A DNA stretch of 64,000 bases from Candidatus Doudnabacteria bacterium. GTDB taxonomy: Bacteria; Patescibacteriota; Doudnabacteria; UBA920; VMFF01. This document shows, piece after piece, positions 2,958 through 60,101 of this stretch. The stretch covers positions 81,663-145,662 of the forward strand of contig CAWIZL010000002.1 in NCBI GenBank assembly GCA_963840645.1, written 5' to 3'. Each line of letters starts with the position of its first letter. Positions within the stretch are counted from its first letter, which is position 1. Made by a program: the position numbers and the translations under genes. The notes beneath the pieces are model-generated. The model worked only from the letters and a program-made list of their open reading frames with translations, did no database searches and was not told where the DNA came from.

Positions 2958-3597
2958 ATGCAACCAATGGCTAATACCGTTGCGACCATCGTTGAAGGAA
3001 TGTCAGTCGAGCAGGGTGGCAAAATGGCTGACCAGCTGTTGACCTACTGCCGCAAGCACGGCTCAGTTTTGCCGAAGAGTACCGTGCAGGAAGTGTTGAA
3101 GCAGGATGGCGAAGTAGTAGCAAAAGAGCAGTTTGAGGTTCTCAGGAAGTACGTTGAGCGGCGGAGCAAGATCATCGTCCGACGTGTCACCATAAACTGG
3201 GATCTGACGCCCGAGCAGATGATCGCAGCAACAAAGCGGAAACAGTACGTCACCGCCGGGGTGCTCGCAACAATGCCTCGTCAGGGGGCGGGTATCGAGA
3301 AAGATGTCGATATGTACTTTTTTCCCGCTGAACGCCAACTCACCATCGACGAGCAGGAAGCAGAAGCTCGCGGCGTACGGACTGGAGCCGTGCTACTACG
3401 GCCAGATCCAGGCAAACATCGACGACTCCTCTTTCGCCGATGAGCGCTGGAATGGTGCTCAGTGGGACAACAAGGATGGGCAAGCTTCGTTCGTCTCCTT
3501 CTACGGGAACGGTGACGGGCGCAGCGTGAGCTGCAACCGCGACGATCACAGGTGGGTTGCCTACGACTGGTTTGCTGGTCGCCTCGCTCGCAAGTAG
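2958..3597 (+). CDS. DGR-1 variable (target) protein; reading frame interrupted once
   Basis: ORF 2958..3443 (frame 0) and ORF 3304..3597 (frame +1) overlap and together encode one protein. The VR lies at the extreme C-terminus (..FVSFYGNGDGRSVSCNRDDHRWVAYDWFAGRLARK). Confidence 0.8.
3493..3595 (+). repeat. VR1 (variable repeat of DGR-1)
   Basis: Ungapped alignment to 3932..4034 (offset 439). 13 mismatches, 11 at TR adenines. The 3' ~30 nt are identical. Confidence 0.9.
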
Positions 3598-3651
3598 CTT
3601 GGGTGCTTGGCATCTCAGCCATTGGTATTCACTTGAGCCTTGGCTCTTTTT

Positions 3652-3718: not shown

Positions 3719-4072
3719 GGTGAACTGTACCTGCGGCTAAGGCTTCAGGTAGCCACCTCGCACTATTGAGTAACCGGTGTGTTGCTGGCTACGGCTCGCG
3801 ACAGGAGTGTTCCTCAATAGCCTTCCAACGAGGATACTTGGTGCAGGCTTCTGGTGGATTTCAATATCCCAAATAAAATACAGCCCCGAGATTTTTCAAG
3901 GGGCAGTGGCGTGGATGGTAGTCTGCACGATGTCACCTTCAACAGGAACGGTGACGAGCGCAACGTGAACTGCAACCGCAACGACAACAGGTGGAATGCC
4001 AACTACTGGTTTGCTGGTCGCCTCGCTCGCAAGTCTCTTCGTTGCTCTCCCTACAGTGGGAGAGTTTGGTTT
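3719..4072 (+). ncRNA. predicted stand-alone TR1 RNA (leader + TR + 3' hairpin)
   Basis: Extended -10 TGgTACAAT at 3704-3712. Conserved leader blocks CCTGCGG..GGCTTCAGG (3730-3749), GATACTTGGTG (3833-3843), TCAAGGGGCAGTGG (3896-3909). TR at 3932-4034. Hairpin CTCTCCC/GGGAGAG at 4045-4064 followed by TTTGGTTT. Confidence 0.5.
3932..4034 (+). repeat. TR1 (template repeat of DGR-1)
   Basis: AAC-rich (reads ..NRNGDERNVNCNRNDNRWNANYWFAGRLARK in the VR frame). Invariant partner of VR1. Confidence 0.9.
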
Positions 4073-4389
4073 CCAAGCTGCTTTTTCCAGCCGCCAATCA
4101 TTTTGCCGACCTCGGCCAAAGGCTCACCCAAGGCGGCAAAACGTTTGTTATCTAGGATTTTCAATTCCCATGCGAGCTGGACAAAGTACTTCAAGGTATC
4201 AACTTTCAGGCTTGCCTTTTGAATGATAGGAGCTTTTTGTTCTCTGGCCGCGTAAGCTGCCAGTAGAATCAGCTCCATCAGCTCAAGGAACAGCAAGTTG
4301 ATTTTCTCTCCCAGTGAGTAGCGTGTCTGCCGTGGAATATGCGGCGCGTAGCTGTACCAAACTTTGTAGGTATCTGAAATTTTTACCAA
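4051..4389 (-). CDS. avd: Avd-like DGR accessory protein (four-helix-bundle / 23S rRNA intervening-sequence protein family)
   Basis: 112-aa ORF starting at TTG, paralogous to 50638..50976 and 58659..59012. The frame stays open upstream through the C tract. The conserved ATG at 4445 is in frame only if the tract is 11 nt. Confidence 0.8.
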   Translation of the reverse strand: MVKISDTYKVWYSYAPHIPRQTRYSLGEKINLLFLELMELILLAAYAAREQKAPIIQKASLKVDTLKYFVQLAWELKILDNKRFAALGEPLAEVGKMIGGWKKQLGNQTLPL

Positions 4390-4422
4390 GACAGACAGGT
4401 TTGCTGTGGATAAATTAGCGTT

Positions 4423-4432
4423 GGGGGGGGGG
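4423..4432. repeat. G10/C10 homopolymer between the avd and RT starts
   Basis: Counted directly; preceded by TGTGGATAA + 9 nt as in the other two cassettes. Confidence 0.9.
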
Positions 4433-4451
4433 TCTTGTAGGCCATTGTTTT

Positions 4452-5453
4452 ATGAAAGCTACTTTTGATAAAAATTACAGCGAAATAATTTCGGTAGAAA
4501 ATCTACTAGCTGCTTGGCAAGAATTTGTCGTCGGCAAAGCCTCAAAGAGAGACGTGCAGAATTTTAGATTGAACTTGCCTGACAACATTCTACAGCTTCA
4601 CGTCGATCTTGCCAATAAATCCTATAAACATGGTGGGTACACAGCATTTGGGATTTCAGACCCAAAGCCGCGGCGAATTCACAAGGCGAGCGTGCGCGAT
4701 CGTGTGCTGCACCATGCAGTCTACAGGCAGCTCTACCCGTTCTTTGATCGACTTTTCATTGCCCACTCTTTTTCTTGCAGAGACGGCAAGGGAACCCACA
4801 GGGCAATGGATGCTCTCAAATCATTTGCGTACCAGGTGAGCGTGAGCCACACAAAAACTTGCTGGGTGCTCAAGTGCGACATCAAAAAGTTTTTTGCGAG
4901 CATTGACCATGGGGTTTTAATTAAAATTTTAGAAGCTCGGATTGCTGATGAAAATATTTTATGGCTGCTCATGGAAATTATCAGTAGCTTTGAGTCTATA
5001 CCCAGCAAAGGTTTGCCGCTCGGCAACTTAACGTCTCAGCTTTTCTGCAATGTGTACATGAATGAGTTTGATCAGTTTGTGAAACGTGAGCTTCGCAGCC
5101 ATTGGTACATTCGGTACGCCGCCGACTTCGTGTTTCTGTCAGAGAGCAGAAAGCAGCTCGAGGAGAAGATACCGCTAGTATCAAACTTCCTTGGCGAAAA
5201 ACTAAAGCTGTCTTTGCACCCAAACAAGGTATCCATACAGTCGTTTGCTTCCGGCGTAGATTTTTTGGGCTGGATTCACTTCCCAAACTATCGAACTTTG
5301 CGCACAGCAACCAAGAGGCGAATGATCAAACAGGTTAAAACTTCGCCAAAACCCCAGACCCTTCAGTCATACTTGGGTATGCTTCAGCATGGGAATGCTT
5401 ATGATTTAAGCCAAGAAGTACTGGATGAGTTCTTACTGTTAGGAAATAAGTAA
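4452..5453 (+). CDS. DGR reverse transcriptase 1 (motif C reads YAAD instead of YADD)
   Basis: RT motifs VLKCDIKKFFASIDH and the DGR-type LPLGNLTSQLFCNVYMN. Motif C is YIRYAADF (codon 5121-5123 is GCC). Confidence 0.9.
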   Translation: MKATFDKNYSEIISVENLLAAWQEFVVGKASKRDVQNFRLNLPDNILQLHVDLANKSYKHGGYTAFGISDPKPRRIHKASVRDRVLHHAVYRQLYPFFDRLFIAHSFSCRDGKGTHRAMDALKSFAYQVSVSHTKTCWVLKCDIKKFFASIDHGVLIKILEARIADENILWLLMEIISSFESIPSKGLPLGNLTSQLFCNVYMNEFDQFVKRELRSHWYIRYAADFVFLSESRKQLEEKIPLVSNFLGEKLKLSLHPNKVSIQSFASGVDFLGWIHFPNYRTLRTATKRRMIKQVKTSPKPQTLQSYLGMLQHGNAYDLSQEVLDEFLLLGNK

Positions 5454-5603: not shown

Positions 5604-13085
<7,482 letters not shown>

Positions 13086-39035: not shown

Positions 39036-39469
39036 GGGTTTGGTCTAGAGGGACAGCGGAATCAAAAATGACCACCCGCTTGCCCCACCTAACCTTTCGG
39101 CTAGGGACCCTTGTAAAGGCTAAGACAAAACGGATGGCCGTCTCTGCTTTACAAGGGATTTTTGCCATGCCCAGAGCAGACCGCTCGTAGGTTTAGGCAA
39201 ACTATTAAATTGTGCCTAAATCATAGTATTTTTGGAGTCTTTGTGCAAACGCGTGGTTTTCTGTAAAACTGGCAGCCCAGGGCACAGCGCAGGTTCGTCC
39301 CTCGGAGTGCCACGGCAGCCCACGTGGAATCTTTGCGCCAAAAGCTTAGAATTGTATGCCCGTCCAAAATCTCTCACTCTGAAGTTGTTTAAAGGCTGGG
39401 CTACCGACACTTGGTTTTAACCGAGTGTAGTTTGGTGCAGGTGTTGCACATTCTTAAAGTTGTAAACCC

Positions 39470-41155: not shown

Positions 41156-42659
41156 ATGGCAAAGAATCAATTGAAGCACAACGGAAGGTACCTCGCATAC
41201 GTCCGCGTATCATCAAGAGACCAAGAAAACGGCATGAGTTTGGACGTTCAGCAGAGCCAGATTGAGTCGTACGCGCGGGAGCGTAGCATGCAGATCGGAA
41301 AATTCTTCGGTGGCGTGGAGGCTGCCTCGCAGACGGGCCGAGAAGAGTTCGGCGAGATGGTCACGATGCTGAAGCGGGAGAAGTACCAGGGGATCATCTT
41401 CGCGAAGGTGGATCGCAGCGGCAGAAATCCGTCTGGACCAGGCGAAGCTCTACGAGCTCATGGGAGCCGGGTACGAGTTCCACTTCGTGGCGGAGCGGCT
41501 GACCACGGCAGAGCACACGGCGAAAACCATGCTGTACCTCCTGTGGGGCGTGGCGAGCGGGTTCAGTGAGAACCTAAAATTTGAGGTGAACAAGGGCATC
41601 TACGCCATGCTGAAAGCGGGTAGGTACCCGAACCCTGCGCCGATCGGGTACCGCGATGCAGGCCGTGGCGTGAAGGAAATTGACGAAGTAAAAGGGCCGA
41701 TCATCAAGAAGCTATTTGAGCTGTACAGCACGGGCAACTGGGACATCCTGTCGCTGCACAAAAAAATTACTGACATGGGACTCGTAACGAAGGTGACCAA
41801 GCAGTACGGCTCAAAGCCGCTCAAGGCGAACGCACTGTACAAGATCCTGCGCAACCCGTGGTACTACGGCTGCATGCTGTACAACGGGGAGAGCTACTTG
41901 GGCGCGCACACGCCGATCATCAGCAAGCAGCTGTTCGACAAGGTGCAGAACCTCTTAGACAGGAGGAGCTTCAAACACCAGCGGAAGTTCCAGTACGTGT
42001 TCCAAGGACTGCTAACCTGCCACACTTGTGGAAAGCCGTTGCGCTCCATTTCATCAAAGGGAAAGTACAAGTACTACGCCTGTAGAAACTTGGCCTGCAG
42101 GTGCAACGTCAACGAAGACTTTGTTGCAATGCAGTTCGAGTACGACCTTCGGCAGCTAGAGTTCTCGGACGAAGAGGTAGAGCTGTTCCTGAAAGCAGTG
42201 GCAATGTTCAGGCAGGAACTCAACCAGTCTAAGGCTGATGAGATCAAGACAATCAACATGGAGCTAGGCAAGACCAAGGCTGAAGCCGAGCGATTACTGC
42301 AACTGTATTTGCAACAGAGCGTGAGCGAGCAAGACTACAAGTCCATGAGATCGAAGCTGGTGAACCGAGAGCTGGAATTGCAAGAGCGGAAGGTTGCGCT
42401 GGAGACCGCCGACAGGAAAACGGTGGACGATATAACAGAAATTGGAAAACTACTCAAAAGGCCATCCCTGGCATACAGGATGGCCTCTGAGGAGAAGAAA
42501 CGTTTTCTCGTGAAATCTCTAGTGGAAAACTTTTCCTGGAATGAGAAAAAGCTAACCACCAATTGGCAGAAACAGTACAAAGTCGTTGCAGAAAGACCGC
42601 GGGTAGAGTTTGGTAGCGCTACCGGGAATCGGACCCGGATTCTCACATTGAAAGCGTGA
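41156..42659 (+). CDS. large serine recombinase (one frame break near 41.44 kb)
   Basis: Resolvase domain YLAYVRVSSRDQ..; recombinase domain; zinc ribbon CHTCGKPL..YYACRNLACRC; coiled coil. The last 49 nt overlap tRNA-Glu. Confidence 0.85.
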
Positions 42660-42685
42660 TGTCCTAACCATTAGACGATAGCGCC
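42611..42685 (-). tRNA. tRNA-Glu (anticodon UUC), CCA encoded
   Basis: Hand-folded cloverleaf: acceptor GGCGCTA/TAGCGCT, D arm GTCT/GGAC, anticodon arm TCACG-CTTTCAA-TGTGA, T arm CCGGG-TCCGATT-CCCGG. The T loop has C where U55 is expected. Confidence 0.75.
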
Positions 42686-48268: not shown

Positions 48269-48368
48269 GATGACAAATTCCTTTCTCATCATCACCACGA
48301 TTGCTCGCGGCGAATATTAGTATTAAGTTGTTAGAAACATTATACACCAAGAGTCAGAGACTGTATAC

Positions 48369-48397
48369 TTGACAAAGTACAATATATATGATAATAT
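48369..48397 (+). promoter_or_regulatory. sigma70-type promoter now facing the IS element
   Basis: TTGACA (48369-48374), 17 nt, TAATAT (48392-48397). Same hexamers and spacing as the DGR-3 target promoter. Confidence 0.5.
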
Positions 48398-48430
48398 GCG
48401 AACAGGCTCAGTTTGGCACCCGCACCCCCC

Positions 48431-49493
48431 AATCCGAACACTCGGATTTTTTCTTTTCAGCCTTTCTTTGCAGCGCTCCGGCGCTGTTTCCGTTCGCGGT
48501 ACTCGTCCAGCCTCTCTCGCGGCGTCGCGTAGTTCAGAACCTCCATGAATTTGCCCGCCATTTTTTTCTCGATGGCCGCGACCCGACGCACCGAGAGCCT
48601 GGAGATATCTGAGCCCTTCGGCACGTAGACCCTGACCCTGCCGTTCAGGTTCTCCACCTGCGGCTTCTCCCACATGTGGCCGGGTAGCAGAAGTACACGC
48701 GGATGCCGAGCTCGCGGGCGAGCTGCTCGTGGTGCACCCAGAGCAGGTCGTTGTCCGTGGTCATGCTCGACCACTCGGGGTAGCGCGCCTTGATCCGCTT
48801 GGCTGCGGCGAGGACGGCGCCTGCTGACGGCGCCAGGGTGCGCTCGAGGAACGGCGCCCGGGTCGGCATGTCCTCGACGACGAGCAGGGTGCCGCGACCC
48901 GACCTGCCCGAGACGATGAAGTCGCCCTCGGCGTCGCCGACGCGGGGCTGCTGCCCAATGGATTTGGGTCGTTTGTCTATGAACGTGCGGCCGTCAGCGA
49001 GTTTCTTCCGCGCCCCGTTCCTGCGCCGCTTCCTCTTCTTCAGCCTGCTCCGGTGGTGCTCAATCTTCCTGCCGTGCGGCGAGGCGACGTACCGGTACAC
49101 GCTGTTCTTGGACACGTCTGGCAGGTTCGGCTCGTGGGTCCTGATCCTGCCAGACACGGCCTCGGGCGACTGGTCGTCGAGCAGCTCCCGCTCGACGAAC
49201 TCGCGGAGCCCGAAGTTCTCGACGAGCTTCTTGCCCTGGTACCTGGCGTTGTGCCGCCGCACGTACGCCCTGTGGTGCGCCTTGGCCGGGTCGTACGCGC
49301 CGCGCACGCTGTTCCGACCCACCTCGTCGCTGACCGTGGACACCGACCGGTGCATAGCGCGGGCGACCGCGCGCATGGAGTACCCCTTCCCCAACAAAAT
49401 TTTTAGCTCGCCGCGCTCGGCCTTCGTGAGGTGCGAGCGCTGTTTTTTTCATGCCTACATTCTAGCAGCTTTTTCTGGCCGAGTGTTCGGATT
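48431..49493 (-). mobile_element. IS30-family insertion sequence, GC-rich
   Basis: 15-bp terminal inverted repeats AATCCGAACACTCGG (48431-48445) and CCGAGTGTTCGGATT (49479-49493) flank an IS30-like transposase gene. Confidence 0.7.
48457..49452 (-). pseudogene. IS30-family transposase, at least two frame breaks
   Basis: Fragments in ORFs 49060..49452 (start plus an A7 run), 48645..49397 (HTH and DDE core) and 48457..48774 (C-terminus). Confidence 0.8.
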
Positions 49494-49547
49494 CAAAAGG
49501 GAACCCGCCTTTTACTGGGTACTTTCAAAAATTAGGAGGATACGCCA

Positions 49548-50156
49548 ATGTCTGAAATCGAAACATTGACCGCATCTGAACCATACGACAGGCAGGTTGA
49601 GAAGTTGACCGAACGGTTGCTCGCAGCAGGGCGCAAATCGGGAATTCCACCATCTCAGTTTCAGGTGGGTCTCGAGTACCCTGGTACTCAGCTCGAAGAT
49701 AAGATTGCGAAGATTATTGTCGAGTTCTCGAAGAGGGCATCTGGAATCTTTACTCTCATGGCCGCAAAGGACACTGGCCTCGTACGAGATGGTTGGACGA
49801 TCGAGAGCGATGACCCGTGCAACGTTGATGTCGCCAAACTCGATTATTCGTATTGCCCCGTAAAGGCAGGCGAAGGTTCCATCAACGGAACCGTCTTGCT
49901 AGAACGTGCGTGCGGCATCGGATGTCTTGGCTTCGGCAAGCTCGTGCTCGACGAGCAGAAAGCGGGAAGGAATGTTATTCCCGTGGAACTGCAAGGGAAG
50001 ATTTATATTCCTCTCACCAGAACCATTCTGCGGAACCGTTACGATGACCGCTACGTGCCGTGCCTCCATTGGAATGGTTCGGAGTGGTGCGTGATCTTCT
50101 TCTGGCTCGACGACAGGTTCAACTCGGATGCTCGTTTGGTTCGCCCCAGCGAGTAG
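49548..50156 (+). CDS. DGR-2 variable (target) protein
   Basis: 202 aa, AGGAGG RBS, no signal peptide. C-terminal VR ..RNRYDDRYVPCLHWNGSEWCVIFFWLDDRFNSDARLVRPSE. Homologous to 57510..58175. Confidence 0.85.
   Translation: MSEIETLTASEPYDRQVEKLTERLLAAGRKSGIPPSQFQVGLEYPGTQLEDKIAKIIVEFSKRASGIFTLMAAKDTGLVRDGWTIESDDPCNVDVAKLDYSYCPVKAGEGSINGTVLLERACGIGCLGFGKLVLDEQKAGRNVIPVELQGKIYIPLTRTILRNRYDDRYVPCLHWNGSEWCVIFFWLDDRFNSDARLVRPSE
50026..50150 (+). repeat. VR2
   Basis: 125-nt ungapped alignment to 50494..50618 (offset 468). 13 mismatches, all at TR adenines. Confidence 0.95.
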
Positions 50157-50278
50157 CACTCAGACACTTGGCTACTCTTTGCTTTTGGGTCTTGTACCCT
50201 TGGCACTTGCGCCCACGGTTTTGCAGCAATGCAAACCCGTTGGTTTTACTTTTCATAAAATTTTCCTATACTACTTTT

Positions 50279-50660
50279 GGACAGAGCGTTCAGCCTGGGT
50301 TACGGCTTCAGGCAGCAAGTCTAGCGTTACCAAAAAATGAGAGTGTCAGGGGGTACGCCTCATGGCAGAAATATTTTTTGGCAATCTTTAAAAAAAGATA
50401 CTCGGTGTGCAGTGTCAGAGAGCTGACGGCTCTGCGTAAAATTCAACCCCGAGAGTATTCAAAGGGTGGTGGCATGGACGACACTGCGCACGTTTCTGCG
50501 GAACCGTAACGATAACCGCAACGTGCCGTACCTCAATTGGAATGGTTCGAAGTGGTACGTGAACTTCAACTGGCTCGACAACAAGTTCAACTCGAATGCT
50601 CGTTTGGTTCGCCCCAGCTAGTATCTCCCACTCCTCCTTAAGCAAGAGGAGTTTGGTTTG
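50279..50660 (+). ncRNA. predicted stand-alone TR2 RNA
   Basis: -10 TATACT at 50267-50272. Leader blocks at 50294-50312, 50397-50407 and 50459-50472. TR at 50494-50618. Hairpin ACTCCTC/GAGGAGT at 50630-50652 followed by TTTGGTTTG. Confidence 0.5.
50494..50618 (+). repeat. TR2
   Basis: Reads ..RNRNDNRNVPYLNWNGSKWYVNFNWLDNKFNSNARLVRPS in the VR frame. Confidence 0.95.
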
Positions 50661-50976
50661 TAAGTTGCCTTTGCCAGCCGCCGAGCATTTTGCCGACCTC
50701 GAGCAGAGGGTTAGATATCGCCGTGTATTTTTTAGTATCAAAACTTTTCAGCTCCCACGCTATTTGCAGAAAGAATTTTAACGTATCCAGTTTCACAGTC
50801 GCTCTCTGAATAATCAAGCTTTTGTGTTCACGTTTTGCAAAAGTTGCGATCAGAATCAACTCAGATGTATCAATGAACAGCAGGTCTATTTTTTCTCCAA
50901 GTGAGTACCGAGAAACCCGCGGAATATTTGGTAGTACGTTATGCCAGATTTTGTAAGCCGCTACTATTTTTTGTAG
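50638..50976 (-). CDS. avd: Avd-like DGR accessory protein 2
   Basis: The ORF track gives only 50638..50859. The frame is open upstream to 51033, and the position of the TTG start of avd1/avd3 is CTA here. The conserved ATG at 51044 is in frame only if the C tract is 11 nt. Confidence 0.7.
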   Translation of the reverse strand, partial: LQKIVAAYKIWHNVLPNIPRVSRYSLGEKIDLLFIDTSELILIATFAKREHKSLIIQRATVKLDTLKFFLQIAWELKSFDTKKYTAISNPLLEVGKMLGGWQRQLTNQTPLA

Positions 50977-51021
50977 AATTGGTAAGTTGCTAGCTGTTTG
51001 TTCTGTGGATAAGTTTCCATT

Positions 51022-51031
51022 GGGGGGGGGG
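51022..51031. repeat. G10/C10 homopolymer
   Basis: Counted directly; TGTGGATAA lies at 51004-51012, 9 nt upstream. Confidence 0.9.
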
Positions 51032-51053
51032 TCTTATAAGTCATGATTTTAAG

Positions 51054-52073
51054 ATGAAGATTACATTTGAAAAGAATTACAGCGAAATTATTTCCCCAGA
51101 CAACCTGTTTGCTGCTTGGCAAGAGTTTACCATTGGCAAGAGATCGAAGAAGGATGTGCAAAATTTCAGCCTGCACCTATCTGACAATATTCTACAGCTT
51201 CACCGCGACCTTGCCAATTTTACTTATAGGCACGGTGGATATTCCGCGTTCAATATCTCTGATCCAAAGCCGCGCAACATTCATAAGGCAAGTATCAGAG
51301 ACAGGGTTTTGCACCATGCAATCTATAGGCAACTCCACCCATTCTTTGACAGGACCTTCATACCAGATTCATTTTCATGCCGCATCAATAAAGGTACGCA
51401 CAGAGCAATGAATCGGTTTCAAGCCTTTGCATGGAAGGTTAGCGGCAACCATACGAAAAATTGTTGGGTGCTAAAGTGTGACATAAAAAAGTTTTTTGGA
51501 AGCATTGACCACGCTGTCTTGCTGAAAATTTTAATCACCCACGTACGAGATGAAAAAATACTTTGGCTTCTCCAAAACCTAATCGAGAGTTTTAATTCTG
51601 GCAGTCCTGGAAAAGGTTTGCCTCTCGGTAACTTAACGTCCCAGTTGTTTTGCAACGTGTACATGAATGAGTTTGATCAATTTGTGAAGCATAGACTCTG
51701 TGCGAAAAATTATATTCGCTACGCTGATGATTTCGTGTTCATGTCTAACGATGAAAGGTGGCTCAGGAACCAGATCCCTAGAATCTCAGAATTTTTAGAG
51801 AACCAGCTACAGCTACATTTGCACCCAAACAAACTATTTGTGAAGAACCTTGCTTCGGGCGTGGATTTTTTAGGTTGGGTACATTTTTCAAAATTTAAGG
51901 TGGTTCGTTCTACAACCCAGAAGCGCATGGTACGAAGGATCTCTGAACAGCCAACGAACGAAACCATACAGTCGTACCTGGGACTACTGAGGCACGGAGA
52001 TGCCTATGATCTTCAGCAAGAAATTTTGAACCTGTATGGCTTGCTTGCGTCGCGCTCGTTTGACCACACATGA
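51054..52073 (+). CDS. DGR reverse transcriptase 2
   Basis: LPLGNLTSQLFCNVYMN, YIRYADDFVF. Confidence 0.9.
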   Translation: MKITFEKNYSEIISPDNLFAAWQEFTIGKRSKKDVQNFSLHLSDNILQLHRDLANFTYRHGGYSAFNISDPKPRNIHKASIRDRVLHHAIYRQLHPFFDRTFIPDSFSCRINKGTHRAMNRFQAFAWKVSGNHTKNCWVLKCDIKKFFGSIDHAVLLKILITHVRDEKILWLLQNLIESFNSGSPGKGLPLGNLTSQLFCNVYMNEFDQFVKHRLCAKNYIRYADDFVFMSNDERWLRNQIPRISEFLENQLQLHLHPNKLFVKNLASGVDFLGWVHFSKFKVVRSTTQKRMVRRISEQPTNETIQSYLGLLRHGDAYDLQQEILNLYGLLASRSFDHT

Positions 52074-57509: not shown

Positions 57510-58175
57510 ATGTCTACATTGCTCACGTCCAAGAAGAACGCTACCGAGGCTCAATTTCGCCGCGTGCGAAACCTGACCCAGGAAGCAATTGAAGCAGCCA
57601 ACCTCGAACAGGCAGGCTTCACCCACGACGATATGCAGGCTATCCATGCCAACGCCGCACCGTACAAGAAGGAGCTTGCGGTCGCCTTCATCGCTTTTCT
57701 CACTAGCTTCACCAAGAAGCTGCTGGGCATCGCAACCCCCGTCCCCGCCGACAAGACCAGCCTGATTCCAAATGGCTGGACTGTCAAAGTCAGGGAGAGC
57801 GTTCCGCAAGACTTTCCCGAAAGCGACGTTGACCTCTCCAAGCTCGACTACTCGCTGTGCCCAGTTCGGGGCAGCGAGGAGCACATCAACGGCACAACGA
57901 TGATGGCACGGGCGAGAGAAGACAAGGCAATCGGCAGCCTCGGCTTAGCGGCTGTGCTCCTCAAGGCTCAGGACGAGGGTAAGGAAATCTTCCCCGTCGA
58001 ATCTCGCGGCAAGCACTATTTCATCATGCCGCTGACTGAGTTGCAGGGCGTCATCGGTTTCGGCTACGTGGCGTACTTCCGCTGGTCTCGCGGGGAGCGG
58101 CGTTGGGTGCTGGGCTTCGGCTGGCTCGGCCGCAGCTTCGTCCGCGACGGCCGCTTCGTTCGCCGCAGCGAGTAG
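57510..58175 (+). CDS. DGR-3 variable (target) protein
   Basis: Start at the ATG 9 nt after GGAGG (ORF track starts at 57501). C-terminal VR ..GVIGFGYVAYFRWSRGERRWVLGFGWLGRSFVRDGRFVRRSE. Confidence 0.85.
   Translation: MSTLLTSKKNATEAQFRRVRNLTQEAIEAANLEQAGFTHDDMQAIHANAAPYKKELAVAFIAFLTSFTKKLLGIATPVPADKTSLIPNGWTVKVRESVPQDFPESDVDLSKLDYSLCPVRGSEEHINGTTMMARAREDKAIGSLGLAAVLLKAQDEGKEIFPVESRGKHYFIMPLTELQGVIGFGYVAYFRWSRGERRWVLGFGWLGRSFVRDGRFVRRSE
58041..58175 (+). repeat. VR3
   Basis: 135-nt ungapped alignment to 58528..58662 (offset 487). 25 mismatches, 24 at TR adenines. Confidence 0.95.
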
Positions 58176-58306
58176 CTCTCGGACACTTGTCACCTTGGTG
58201 CTTTCGGGTTTTGAACCCTTGGCACTGCGCTCTATCCTCACACCTCAGGCTTCGGTCTCTGGTGTGGGGATTTCTTTTTCGAAATTTCTTCTGGTACAAT
58301 TCTTTA

Positions 58307-58696
58307 GGATAGATGCTGCGCCTGCGGTCACGGCTTCATGCAATCTCTCTAGCGATTACTAAAAATCAGGGTATCGGCGGCTACGGTTTCCGATAGAGCA
58401 TTCTTTAGTAACTCTTCAAAAGAAGATACTCGGTGCGAGGTGTTGGCGAGGTTTAATTCCTCCTAACAAAAAGATACAGCTCCAAGAGCACTCAAGGGGC
58501 AGTGGACAGGATGACACCCCGCATATTTTGCAGGACGACAACGGTAACGGCAACGTGGCGTACTTCAACTGGTCTAACGAGAAGCAGCGTTGGGTGCTGG
58601 ACTTCAACTGGCTCGACAACAACTTCAACCGCAACGACCGCTTCGTTCGCCGCAGCGACTAGCTTCTCACTCCTACTTCGGTGGGAGTTTCTTTTG
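58307..58696 (+). ncRNA. predicted stand-alone TR3 RNA
   Basis: Extended -10 TGgTACAAT at 58292-58300. Leader blocks at 58321-58340, 58425-58435 and 58492-58505. TR at 58528-58662. Hairpin ACTCCTAC-TTCG-GTGGGAGT at 58669-58688 followed by TTCTTTTG. Confidence 0.5.
58528..58662 (+). repeat. TR3
   Basis: Reads ..DNGNGNVAYFNWSNEKQRWVLDFNWLDNNFNRNDRFVRRSD in the VR frame. Confidence 0.95.
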
Positions 58697-59012
58697 CGAG
58701 CTGTCTCTGCCAGCCGCCGAGCATTTTTCCCGCTTCTACCAGTGAACTCGAAATTTGCACATACTGCTTATTATCAAGCACCTTTAGCTCCCAAGCCATT
58801 TGCAAAAAATATTTCAGGGTGTCCAGTTTAATGCTGGCCTTTTGAACAATCGGCAGCTTGGTTGCCTTGGCGGCAAATCCTGCCGTGAGAATCAGCTCGA
58901 TGACATCTGTGAACAGTTGGCCTATCTTTTCTCCCAGCGAGTGCTTCGACAGCCGTGGGATGTGCGGCAGCAGGCTGTGCCAGAACTTGTAAGCACCGCC
59001 AACCTCTTGCAA
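58659..59012 (-). CDS. avd: Avd-like DGR accessory protein 3
   Basis: 117-aa ORF from TTG. The frame is open upstream through the C12 tract. The ATGs at 59064 and 59073 are in frame only if the tract is 11 nt. Confidence 0.8.
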   Translation of the reverse strand: MQEVGGAYKFWHSLLPHIPRLSKHSLGEKIGQLFTDVIELILTAGFAAKATKLPIVQKASIKLDTLKYFLQMAWELKVLDNKQYVQISSSLVEAGKMLGGWQRQLAKETPTEVGVRS

Positions 59013-59045
59013 GACAGGGAGGTTGGCTGTGGATAAGTTAGCGTT

Positions 59046-59057
59046 GGGGGGGGGGGG
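59046..59057. repeat. G12/C12 homopolymer
   Basis: Counted directly; TGTGGATAA lies at 59028-59036, 9 nt upstream. Confidence 0.9.
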
Positions 59058-59084
59058 TCTCCATATAAAGCATAAAATTTAAGA

Positions 59085-60101
59085 ATGAAAATTAAATTTG
59101 AAAAAAATTACGAGAGCATCATCTCACTTGAGAATCTATTTTTAGCCTGGCAGGAATTTATTGTGGGCAAAAGAAAGAAACGTGATGTCCAGCAGTTCAG
59201 TTTAAGTTTAACCGATAACCTTGTCCAGCTCAACGCCGAACTCACAGCTCGTTCCTACAAGCACGGCGGCTACAAGGCCTTTAACATTTCTGACCCAAAG
59301 CCACGCAACATACACAAGGCGACTGTTCGAGACAGGGTGCTGCACCATGCTATCTACAGGCAGCTGTACCCTTTCTTTGACCGAACCTTCATTGCCGATT
59401 CATTTTCTTGTCGTTTGGGCAAGGGAGTTCATAAGGCGTTGGGTCGGTTCGAGAGCTTTGCGTTGCAAGTGAGCAGAAACAACACCCGCACTGCTTGGAT
59501 TTTGAAAATGGACGTGAGGAGATTCTTTGCGAGCATTGACCACGAAATCTTGCTAGGCATCTTAGCCGCTCACATACCCGACCAAGACATTCTCTGGCTC
59601 TTGGGGCAGATTATAGAGAGCTTCTCATCTAAACCTGATACAGGGTTGCCCCTCGGCAACTTAACCTCGCAGCTGTTCTGCAACGTGTACCTGAATGAGT
59701 TTGACCAGTTCGTGAAGCACAAGCTCAAGGGTAAATATTACATTCGCTATGCCGACGACCTCGTTCTCTTTTCCGATGACAGGGAGTGGCTGTTGGGTCG
59801 GGTGAGCCTGGTATCTGATTTCTTGGAGCAGCGGCTTTGCCTGTCCTTGCATCCTGACAAACTTTGCTTGAAGAGCCTATCGTCAGGCATGGACTTCTTG
59901 GGATGGGTAAATTTTCCCCACCATCGGGTTCTGCGAACCACAACGCAAAGGCGGGCAATGAAAAGAGTACAGGCTCACCCCACCGATGACACCGTGCAGT
60001 CCTATTTAGGACTGTCAGTCCACGGCAACGCCTTTGATTTTAAGCAGCGAATTTTGAACTGGTATGGGTTGATTTCAGAGAAAGGATATTATAAGAAGTG
60101 A
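59085..60101 (+). CDS. DGR reverse transcriptase 3
   Basis: LPLGNLTSQLFCNVYLN, YIRYADDLVL. Confidence 0.9.
   Translation: MKIKFEKNYESIISLENLFLAWQEFIVGKRKKRDVQQFSLSLTDNLVQLNAELTARSYKHGGYKAFNISDPKPRNIHKATVRDRVLHHAIYRQLYPFFDRTFIADSFSCRLGKGVHKALGRFESFALQVSRNNTRTAWILKMDVRRFFASIDHEILLGILAAHIPDQDILWLLGQIIESFSSKPDTGLPLGNLTSQLFCNVYLNEFDQFVKHKLKGKYYIRYADDLVLFSDDREWLLGRVSLVSDFLEQRLCLSLHPDKLCLKSLSSGMDFLGWVNFPHHRVLRTTTQRRAMKRVQAHPTDDTVQSYLGLSVHGNAFDFKQRILNWYGLISEKGYYKK

Follow-up and report, generated by a model that had tools for sequence, protein, structure and literature searches.

A repeat tract at the 5' end of avd as a candidate slipped-strand switch on diversity-generating retroelements of Patescibacteria

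Contingency loci built on poly-G/C tracts or other short repeats include the poly-G genes of Campylobacter jejuni, pilC and lgt of Neisseria, and lic/lgtC of Haemophilus influenzae, which carry a tetranucleotide repeat. Other tracts lie in promoters, such as the (TA)n repeat of H. influenzae hifA/hifB and the poly-C tract of Bordetella fim, and act through the spacing between the −35 and −10 elements; still other genes depend on slippage, among them the poly(A)-tract genes of insect endosymbionts, mxiE of Shigella, and dnaX of Thermus. In the diversity-generating retroelement (DGR) of a Bordetella phage, the reverse transcriptase (RT) needs the avd product for cDNA synthesis. DGRs are usually treated as constitutive or as linked to the phage life cycle. 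The prototype DGR, that of Bordetella phage BPP-1, has the order mtd-avd-TR-brt, in which TR is the template repeat, and lower fidelity has been reported for DGRs of the candidate phyla radiation (CPR) (PMC5758913). Here we describe a simple-sequence repeat at the start of avd in three DGRs of a Candidatus Doudnabacteria genome and in related cassettes. The three DGRs lie in a 64,000-nucleotide stretch of assembly GCA_963840645.1 (contig CAWIZL010000002.1, positions 81,663 to 145,662 of the forward strand), which we call the window and to which all window coordinates refer. An earlier interpretation of the same stretch, made without database searches (the sequence-only reading), had proposed that the repeat is a contingency locus.

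The three cassettes of the window have the layout target(VR)-TR-avd(reverse)-RT, in which VR is the variable repeat. A DGR-type RT was recognized by its match to Pfam RVT_1 (E = 3.9e-25), the bAvd profile PF22296 matched in all three cassettes at E = 1e-13 to 6e-15, above its curated cut-off, and each cassette showed adenine-biased differences between TR and VR. With RVT_1 and bAvd confirmed by Pfam and a TR/VR pair of this kind in each cassette, these elements are three DGRs. The RT translation of cassette 1 contains LPLGNLTSQLF, which matches the (I/L)GxxxSQ motif typical of DGR RTs. The three RTs of the genome are paralogues with 61-65% identity, and more than 7,900 RT homologues with E ≤ 1e-60 were found, mostly in metagenome-assembled genomes (MAGs) of Patescibacteria; the relatives are nearly all from such CPR MAGs, including Doudna-, Kaiser-, Yanofsky-, Falkow- and Paceibacterota.

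Read in the sense of avd, which lies on the minus strand, the cassettes carry homopolymer tracts of C10 at 4423-4432, C10 at 51022-51031, and C12 at 59046-59057 (G on the plus strand). A homopolymer census showed that these are the only G/C homopolymers longer than 6 nt in the 64,000 bases, the next-longest G/C runs being two of C6 and nine of G5, and Tandem Repeats Finder detected no other notable simple repeat in the window. avd and RT are divergent in every cassette, and the tract separates a minus-strand ATG from the Avd frame. The proposed start is ATG GCC TAC AAG A-Cn at 4443-4445 in cassette 1 and ATG ACT TAT AAG A-Cn at 51042-51044 in cassette 2, and cassette 3 has two candidate ATGs, at 59071-59073 and 59062-59064, in one and the same frame; the tract begins 13, 13, and 7/16 nt past the ATG in cassettes 1, 2, and 3, respectively. 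These ATGs are 6-20 nt from the divergent RT start codons at 4452, 51054, and 59085, which open the plus-strand RT genes at 4452-5453 (the RVT_1 match, with its start 6 nt from the avd ATG), 51054-52073, and 59085-60101, the last two being RT open reading frames (ORFs). Translation of the minus strand showed that the Avd frame stays open as far as the tract in each cassette and that the ATG is out of frame with Avd in all three cassettes as assembled, the change required being +1 nt in cassettes 1 and 2 and −1 nt in cassette 3. The ATG and Avd are joined solely at a tract of 11 (or 8 or 14) nt, and the predicted N-termini read through the tract are then MAYKTPPPNANLSTANLSVLVK..., MTYKTPPPNGNLSTEQTASNLPILQK..., and (MLY)METPPPNANLSTANLPVLQE... 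for cassettes 1, 2, and 3. So extended, avd spans 4051-4445 in cassette 1 (PF22296, E = 5.6e-15; joined to its ATG at C11), where the ORF called mechanically, 4051-4389, begins at an internal TTG although its frame stays open beyond, to the tract. The avd genes rebuilt through the tract span 50638-51044 in cassette 2 (E = 3.2e-13, with the profile starting at 'LPILQK') and 58659-59073 in cassette 3 (E = 1.7e-13; 58659-59012 as called). The tract positions, the frame relations with their joining lengths, the N-termini, and the 6-20 nt between the divergent starts all agree with what the sequence-only reading had derived. The length of 11 that it singled out does join all three window cassettes, but this value is specific to the genome, as relatives are in frame at 8, 9, 10, and other lengths.

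Relatives were collected by scanning one genome per species, and then metagenomes of the Joint Genome Institute, with an alignment of five RTs; 80 loci were taken from each (loci are numbered with the prefix L), and each junction was read after the RT start and an Avd anchor (the Y of A-Y-K-x-W) had been placed by tblastn. A C run of at least 6 nt (6-19 nt) was present at the homologous avd-strand site, 2-10 codons upstream of the conserved LP(I/V)LQK, in 137 of 147 divergent, adjacent avd/RT junctions. The run lengths had their mode at 9-10 nt: one junction had 6 nt, two had 7, 11 had 8, 59 had 9, 39 had 10, 14 had 11, four had 12, two had 13, three had 15, and one each had 18 and 19. The arrangement of an upstream ATG followed by a tract, which the sequence-only reading had suggested looking for in homologous cassettes, is thus found in related genomes. 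Among the G/C runs of at least 8 nt in 632 kb of related loci, 124 were at the junction, ~13 were at contig ends just upstream of RT, and ~4 were elsewhere. Codon preference is not the cause of the run, since CCC makes up only 19% of the proline codons in the related RT genes. Moreover, the site is filled by (GA)10 in L016, by avd-strand G8 in L098-100 and L190-193, and by (CA)9 or (CA)10 in a Sungbacteria group defined by RT P0063. Poly-proline coding was rejected as a sufficient cause on these two grounds, and the interchangeability of repeat types speaks against base- or structure-specific explanations in general, for instance a signal in G-rich RNA or polyproline by itself. The comparison argues that the repeat as such, rather than poly-C, is conserved, which would mean selection for a slippage-prone sequence.

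It is well supported by these comparisons that Avd starts at the ATG upstream of the tract and is translated through it, as the sequence-only reading had re-annotated the gene. The upstream ATG was open into the tract in every cassette examined and was found in two arrangements. In one, seen in the window, it lies in the short spacer between avd and RT; in the other, seen in ~60% of cassettes, it is the exact antisense of RT codon 7 when this codon is His, which gives avd and RT a head-to-head overlap of 21 nt. The His at codon 7 was encoded by CAT in 76 cases and by CAC in 3, compared with 1099 CAT and 758 CAC for the other His codons of the same RTs (Fisher p = 8e-14), indicating that the antisense ATG is under selection. 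Between the tract and the Avd core, 52 of the 130 non-redundant cassettes had no ATG, GTG, or TTG, and 124 had no ATG. Cassette 2 of the window is one of the 52, which leaves its upstream ATG as the sole canonical start before the Avd core, as had been predicted. A start at an internal TTG or GTG therefore does not hold in general and was rejected; the Leu codon of the conserved 'LP' also varies (TTG, CTG, CTT, TTA, ATC). Since the Pfam bAvd profile starts close to the LP motif, the annotated TTG of cassette 1 clips the domain by ~3 residues. Termination and reinitiation at an upstream ORF, for which the out-of-frame ORF of cassette 1 ending at TTGGTAA beside the TTG was considered, was also rejected, as it is not common to cassettes 2 and 3. 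Cassettes lacking a repeat read straight through from the ATG, namely L022 and L024, which give MTQL(P/L)(F/L)HTDKNNTKIKGLPETTDLPVLQK..., and L082, L141, and L143. Interrupted tracts kept Pro-Pro-Pro with changes in third positions only (CCG CCG CCG in L060 and CCT CCC CCC in L001-10), and homologues in frame were gene-called from the upstream ATG as MPPPNANLSTANLPILQK... (P0002) and MNPPPNGNLSTANLPILQK... (P0003; one called form is MNPPPNGNLST...).

We determined the phase of each of 126 non-redundant C-tract cassettes from its canonical ATG. Twenty-nine were in frame (23%), 50 needed −1 nt, and 47 needed +1 nt; the requirement for +1, +1, and −1 nt in the window is therefore the typical picture for the clade and not an oddity. 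Conversely, the six non-redundant cassettes in which the repeat was absent or interrupted were all in frame, compared with the 29 of 126 whose C tract was intact (Fisher p = 2.5e-4). We then compared 10 same-strain sets, defined by identical flanks or an identical RT protein in different samples. Four of these sets differed by one repeat unit with 100% identical flanks, and in three the difference flipped the cassette between the in-frame (ON) and out-of-frame (OFF) states. L168 and L171, identical over 350 nt of flanks, had C9 (ON) and C10 (OFF), respectively. The P0063 group had (CA)9, out of frame, in four samples and (CA)10, in frame and reading MALPHTHTHTQASVLPIIQR..., in two; this variation is dinucleotide and cannot be explained by homopolymer sequencing error. 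The P0132 group, the closest type to the window cassettes, had C7, out of frame, in four samples and C8, in frame and reading MNTPPNGNLSTSNLPVLQG..., in one, and the fourth set, L014/L015, had C12 and C11. The remaining six sets were invariant, each showing a single length at the 2-7 loci that were read, which came from up to 15 contigs: P0002 at C9 (ON), P0084 and P0127 at C9 (OFF), P0034 with L098-100 at G8 (OFF), and L084/148 and L150/154 at C10. As the same length was called in independent assemblies (C9 in 3 places of 15 contigs, G8 in 7, and C9 in 4), the out-of-frame states are real and not assembler noise. Both the frame arithmetic and the ON/OFF pairs L168/L171, P0063, and P0132 show that a change of one unit toggles between a full-length and a truncated product.

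These results lead us to favour the reading that the tract acts on Avd translation as a slipped-strand contingency switch and so gates mutagenesis by the DGR, to which we assign a probability of about 0.6. A hypermutable simple-sequence repeat would lie a few codons past the true avd start, and slipped-strand mispairing during replication would add or remove repeat units. Translation of Avd would begin at the upstream ATG and pass through the tract, read as Pro-Pro-Pro, with full-length protein made from one length class in three and the other two classes stopping after ~10-25 codons. The tract would then turn Avd, and with it mutagenic retrohoming, ON and OFF in a heritable, reversible, and stochastic manner: OFF alleles would freeze the variable protein, ON alleles would permit adenine mutagenesis, and the three cassettes of the genome, each with its own tract, would switch independently. 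We infer that replication slippage within populations gives rise to the polymorphism, that no functional Avd is made from OFF alleles, and that loss of Avd stops mutagenesis; by analogy with the Bordetella phage DGR, the RTs of the window cassettes would likewise require Avd. In its sequence the tract has the marks of a contingency locus, namely an uninterrupted run above the ~7 units needed for slippage, its position, its effect on the frame, its over-representation, and its polymorphism in relatives. The one-unit differences within strains, the scrambled phase, the interchangeable repeats, and the in-frame state of repeat-free cassettes all point the way the sequence-only reading had suggested. 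A wider proposal, for which we see even odds, is that DGR hypermutation in much of Patescibacteria is under second-order stochastic control, with the mutator OFF in most cells and ON in a minority. It takes into account that a conserved yet interchangeable repeat sits in the head-to-head overlap of avd and RT and, in some lineages, inside both ORFs; the rate of targeted diversification would itself be phase-variable and heritable. A stronger variant would make the out-of-frame state the selected default, with Avd always produced via slippage and the repeat serving as an obligatory recoding signal for Avd dosage.

Several observations weigh against the contingency switch as formulated here. In-frame alleles are rarer than the 33% expected by chance (binomial p ~0.008), and if OFF is null, most of the sampled cassettes are therefore inactive. 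Three of the six invariant sets were stably OFF across 4-15 contigs, which fits slow switching, selection for OFF, or production of Avd from out-of-frame alleles by another route. The polymorphism was seen between assemblies of relatives, rather than within one population or in the source genome, and the window's own lengths of 10, 10, and 12 come from an assembly with indels, so that these calls may be wrong. Two further points concern the RT side of the junction. A flank motif, AAAWWnCGTY-Gn-T on the RT strand, was present at the tract in 77 cassettes (4413-4422, 51012-51021, and 59036-59045 in the window), and its AACG encodes N-G, Q-R, or (P)T depending on the locus; this conservation regardless of the Avd frame, which coding does not explain, hints at an additional non-coding role. 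In addition, 23 relatives (among them L029, L031, L034, L046, L048, L056, L071, L077, L078, L083, L095, L111, L114, L118, L123, L136, and L142) had no ATG, GTG, or TTG for RT downstream of the G run, and the RT ORF must cross the repeat as poly-Gly. In about half of these loci an upstream RT start was in frame, which places one repeat inside both overlapping ORFs. Because the RT ORF crosses the tract in these relatives, there are lineages in which the switch does not concern Avd alone.

The quality of the assembly bears directly on the first of the other explanations. A 1-nt indel near 6618, within the non-homopolymer sequence GGGAGAAGCTG, breaks the rpoB gene (ORFs 5604-6824 and 6577-8649), and the DGR-1 target and an insertion sequence (IS)-like ORF are also frame-broken; random indels are thus present in the assembly, as the sequence-only reading had cautioned, and calls of 10-12 nt homopolymers are unreliable to within one base. 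The lengths of 10, 10, and 12 may represent cassettes that are truly OFF or miscalled 11s, both being compatible with an error-prone assembly. The RT of cassette 1 was located in one other assembly, on a Logan contig; look-ups of the annotated 112-aa Avd of cassette 1 (P0001) and of the RT of cassette 3 gave no match. It could then be argued that the tract is fixed at 11 in all three window cassettes and that the observed lengths are long-read homopolymer miscalls, in which case just the re-annotation of the ATG would stand for the source organism. All three tracts are exactly one base off the common in-frame length, as this explanation would have it; however, the out-of-frame state was the majority state in ~126 independent, mostly short-read assemblies, and out-of-frame lengths were reproduced between assemblies. 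The majority state in relatives removes any prior for an in-frame true state in the window, and we consider a fixed length of 11 improbable; a miscall would in any case alter the state of the switch and not its existence. A better, though still unlikely, explanation is programmed recoding, in which the out-of-frame state is the normal functional one, the tract tunes the Avd:RT ratio, and the length of the DNA matters little. Slippage of RNA polymerase on the homopolymer, or a tRNA-Pro frameshift on CCC.C in a polyproline stall, would keep Avd at a low and fixed level; long homopolymers are known to promote transcriptional slippage, and CCC-C is known to permit +1 shifts. Recoding would accommodate the 77% of the 126 cassettes that are out of frame and the three strains that are reproducibly so in 4-15 contigs, and the cassettes do look maintained, with RT and Avd intact and TR/VR pairs present (TR/VR was checked for the window). 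Programmed recoding sites normally keep one direction, however, and no fixed out-of-frame relation with one conserved direction was found among the 126 C-tract cassettes, where the required shift goes both ways (−1 nt in 50, +1 nt in 47, none in 29). Furthermore, the (CA)n and (GA)n repeats at the tract site are classic substrates of replication slippage but poor ones for slippage by RNA polymerase or the ribosome, the length polymorphism was seen directly in DNA, and ~33% rather than 23% of alleles would be expected in frame if the phase of the DNA were irrelevant.

We also considered that the G run is a cis-regulatory element of RT, whose length would modulate RT transcription or translation, with the effect on the Avd frame being incidental. 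The run would lie at or just past the RT transcription start or in the 5' untranslated region, and would act through promoter geometry, reiterative initiation, or the spacing of the ribosome-binding site. Its location 3-45 nt upstream of the RT start codon fits such a role, as do the flank motif conserved in DNA across all three Avd reading frames, a Shine-Dalgarno-like AGAGG after the run in many loci (TAGAATTAGAGGT-ATG), and the 23 loci in which RT has no start codon downstream of the run. The sequence-only reading had similarly proposed an extended −10 element from which RT mRNA would start at the run. The motif in question, TGTGGATAA(A/G)T, is present in the window cassettes, and TGTGGATAA ends 9 nt before each run, but a consensus scan of the three cassettes found no sigma-70-like site at TGTGGATAAAT; when TG is placed in register, the hexamer reads ATAAAT or ATAAGT, with T and not A at position 2. 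In the closest relatives, the P0132 group, the counterpart of TGTGGATAA is TGTGGACAAGT (flank form GGACAAGT), and no conserved RT-strand promoter was seen in 130 cassettes aligned on the Avd anchor, of which 11 matched. The extended −10 is therefore not supported, and TGTGGATAA(A/G)T looks like the antisense of the codons for N-L-S-T. Nor can a base-specific signal account for the replacement of the run by C-strand G8, (GA)n, or (CA)n, and a role in RT expression would leave unexplained both the selected antisense ATG and the difference in frame that sets cassettes with a repeat apart from those without one. A cis-regulatory RT element thus appears very improbable as the primary function of the tract, and we retain the contingency switch on Avd as the preferred interpretation.

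A candidate promoter for avd was noted further upstream. The sequence TTGGCA-17-TAGAAT, at 4587-4615 on the minus strand of cassette 1 and inside RT codons ~46-55, has homologues at 51189-51217 and 59199-59227 on the same strand (TGGACA-17-TAAACT in cassette 3); in the window these are consensus matches only, and TTGnCA-17-TAnAAT occurred at the same place with at least 9 of 12 matches in ~50 of 140 relatives. If used, this candidate would give a ~110-135 nt leader antisense to the 5' end of RT, although its conservation is confounded by the coding constraint on RT. In cassette 1 only, a small hairpin followed by a T-run (GGTCTTGTAGGCC ATTGTTTTAT) lies at 4431-4453, between the G run and the RT ATG, and is probably a chance match. 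No known RNA family was found at the junction: Rfam gave no match at E ≤ 1 in 3850-4650, at cassette 1, and, across the whole window at the gathering threshold, detected just a tRNA and a LOOT RNA, neither of them at a junction; the tRNA is at 42614-42685 and the LOOT RNA (RF03000, 53.4 bits, above the gathering score) at 39070-39199, both on the minus strand.

Among the junctions of relatives, many metagenome contigs break off at the tract or no more than ~100 nt from it (L096, L104, L106, L108, L128, L152, L155, L169, L173, and L175), L155 beginning with G15 and L175 with several long G runs, which suggests that the repeat breaks assemblies, either through heterogeneity or through sequencing difficulty. 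Two loci, L036 and L037, carry a palindromic insert of 60-110 nt, with arms like GTCATTCCCG...CGGGAATGAC, between the RT start and the avd ATG and tract. The insert, which in L037 includes a G11 run, leaves the arrangement of ATG, tract, and Avd undisturbed and resembles a miniature inverted-repeat element. In L001-L010, the P0003 loci, avd is intact, has an interrupted tract (ATG AAC CCT CCC CCC AAC), and abuts a 5'-truncated RT remnant comprising RT residues 58-107 only; since the same arrangement was found on 24 contigs, from many groundwater samples, this type is a stable avd lacking RT. The P0122 group was set aside as a degenerate and uninformative cassette.

The repeats of the three DGRs lie on the plus strand on the far side of avd. 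In cassette 1 the TR is at 3932-4046 and the VR at 3493-3607, at the 3' end of the frame-broken target gene, with 11 of 17 TR/VR mismatches at TR adenines. Cassette 2 has its TR at 50420-50630 and its VR at 49953-50162, with 21 of 52 mismatches at A in an alignment that overruns the repeat, and cassette 3 has its TR at 58528-58710 and its VR at 58041-58228, with 27 of 44 mismatches at TR adenines. The differences at positions other than A fit a noisy assembly and the lower fidelity of CPR DGRs alike. The target gene of DGR-1 (2958-3597) is split into overlapping ORFs at 2958-3443 and 3304-3597, either by an assembly indel or by a real frameshift upstream of the VR. Directly upstream of the DGR-2 target gene are frame-broken IS30-like ORFs (48323-49569), whose sole match was HTH_38; by eye this segment is GC-rich and looks foreign to its surroundings.

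If the contingency switch on Avd is real, the length of the tract would be a sequence-readable ON/OFF indicator for cassettes in any metagenome, would account for many CPR avd genes that are annotated as short or without a start, and would set their start codons right. With such a switch, the costs and benefits of targeted hypermutation could also be tested directly, by comparing VR heterogeneity with tract phase within samples, and it would extend contingency-locus biology to the CPR, where an episymbiotic lifestyle makes bet-hedging with surface proteins plausible. Homopolymer calls at the avd tract should escape automatic correction by polishing and annotation pipelines. As far as we searched, the literature holds no description of phase variation in Patescibacteria, and neither a full-text literature search nor the 2018 Nucleic Acids Research survey of DGRs, which includes a CPR set (PMC5758913), yielded a mention of a repeat tract in avd, although a prior description is possible.

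Compared with the systems named at the outset, the avd tract most resembles the contingency loci of Campylobacter, Neisseria, and Haemophilus. It shares with them an uninterrupted repeat within the first few to ~15 codons in which one unit shifts the frame, ON and OFF alleles in one strain (seen here in relatives), interchangeable repeat types, and strong over-representation. In contrast to those loci, the gated gene here is the accessory of a retroelement mutator rather than a surface or modification gene, so that the proposed switch would act on the generator of variation, and the tract lies in a head-to-head overlap with the partner RT gene. Like the hifA/hifB and fim tracts, it is a simple repeat that lies at a pair of divergent genes, between or inside them, and changes in its length are proposed to control expression; unlike them, the evidence points to the reading frame, and no promoter was placed around the tract. 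The resemblance to the endosymbiont poly(A)-tract genes, mxiE, and dnaX lies in a long coding homopolymer with many alleles out of frame in a gene that is still maintained, whereas the avd runs are G/C or dinucleotide rather than A/T, require shifts in both directions where the programmed cases are consistent, and are polymorphic in DNA. With the BPP-1 DGR the cassettes have in common the RT, an Avd-family accessory, an adenine-biased TR/VR pair, and a C-terminal VR in the target. They differ from it in the order target(VR)-TR-avd(reverse)-RT, in the divergence of avd and RT with starts 6-20 nt apart or a 21-nt overlap, and in the repeat tract at the 5' end of avd.

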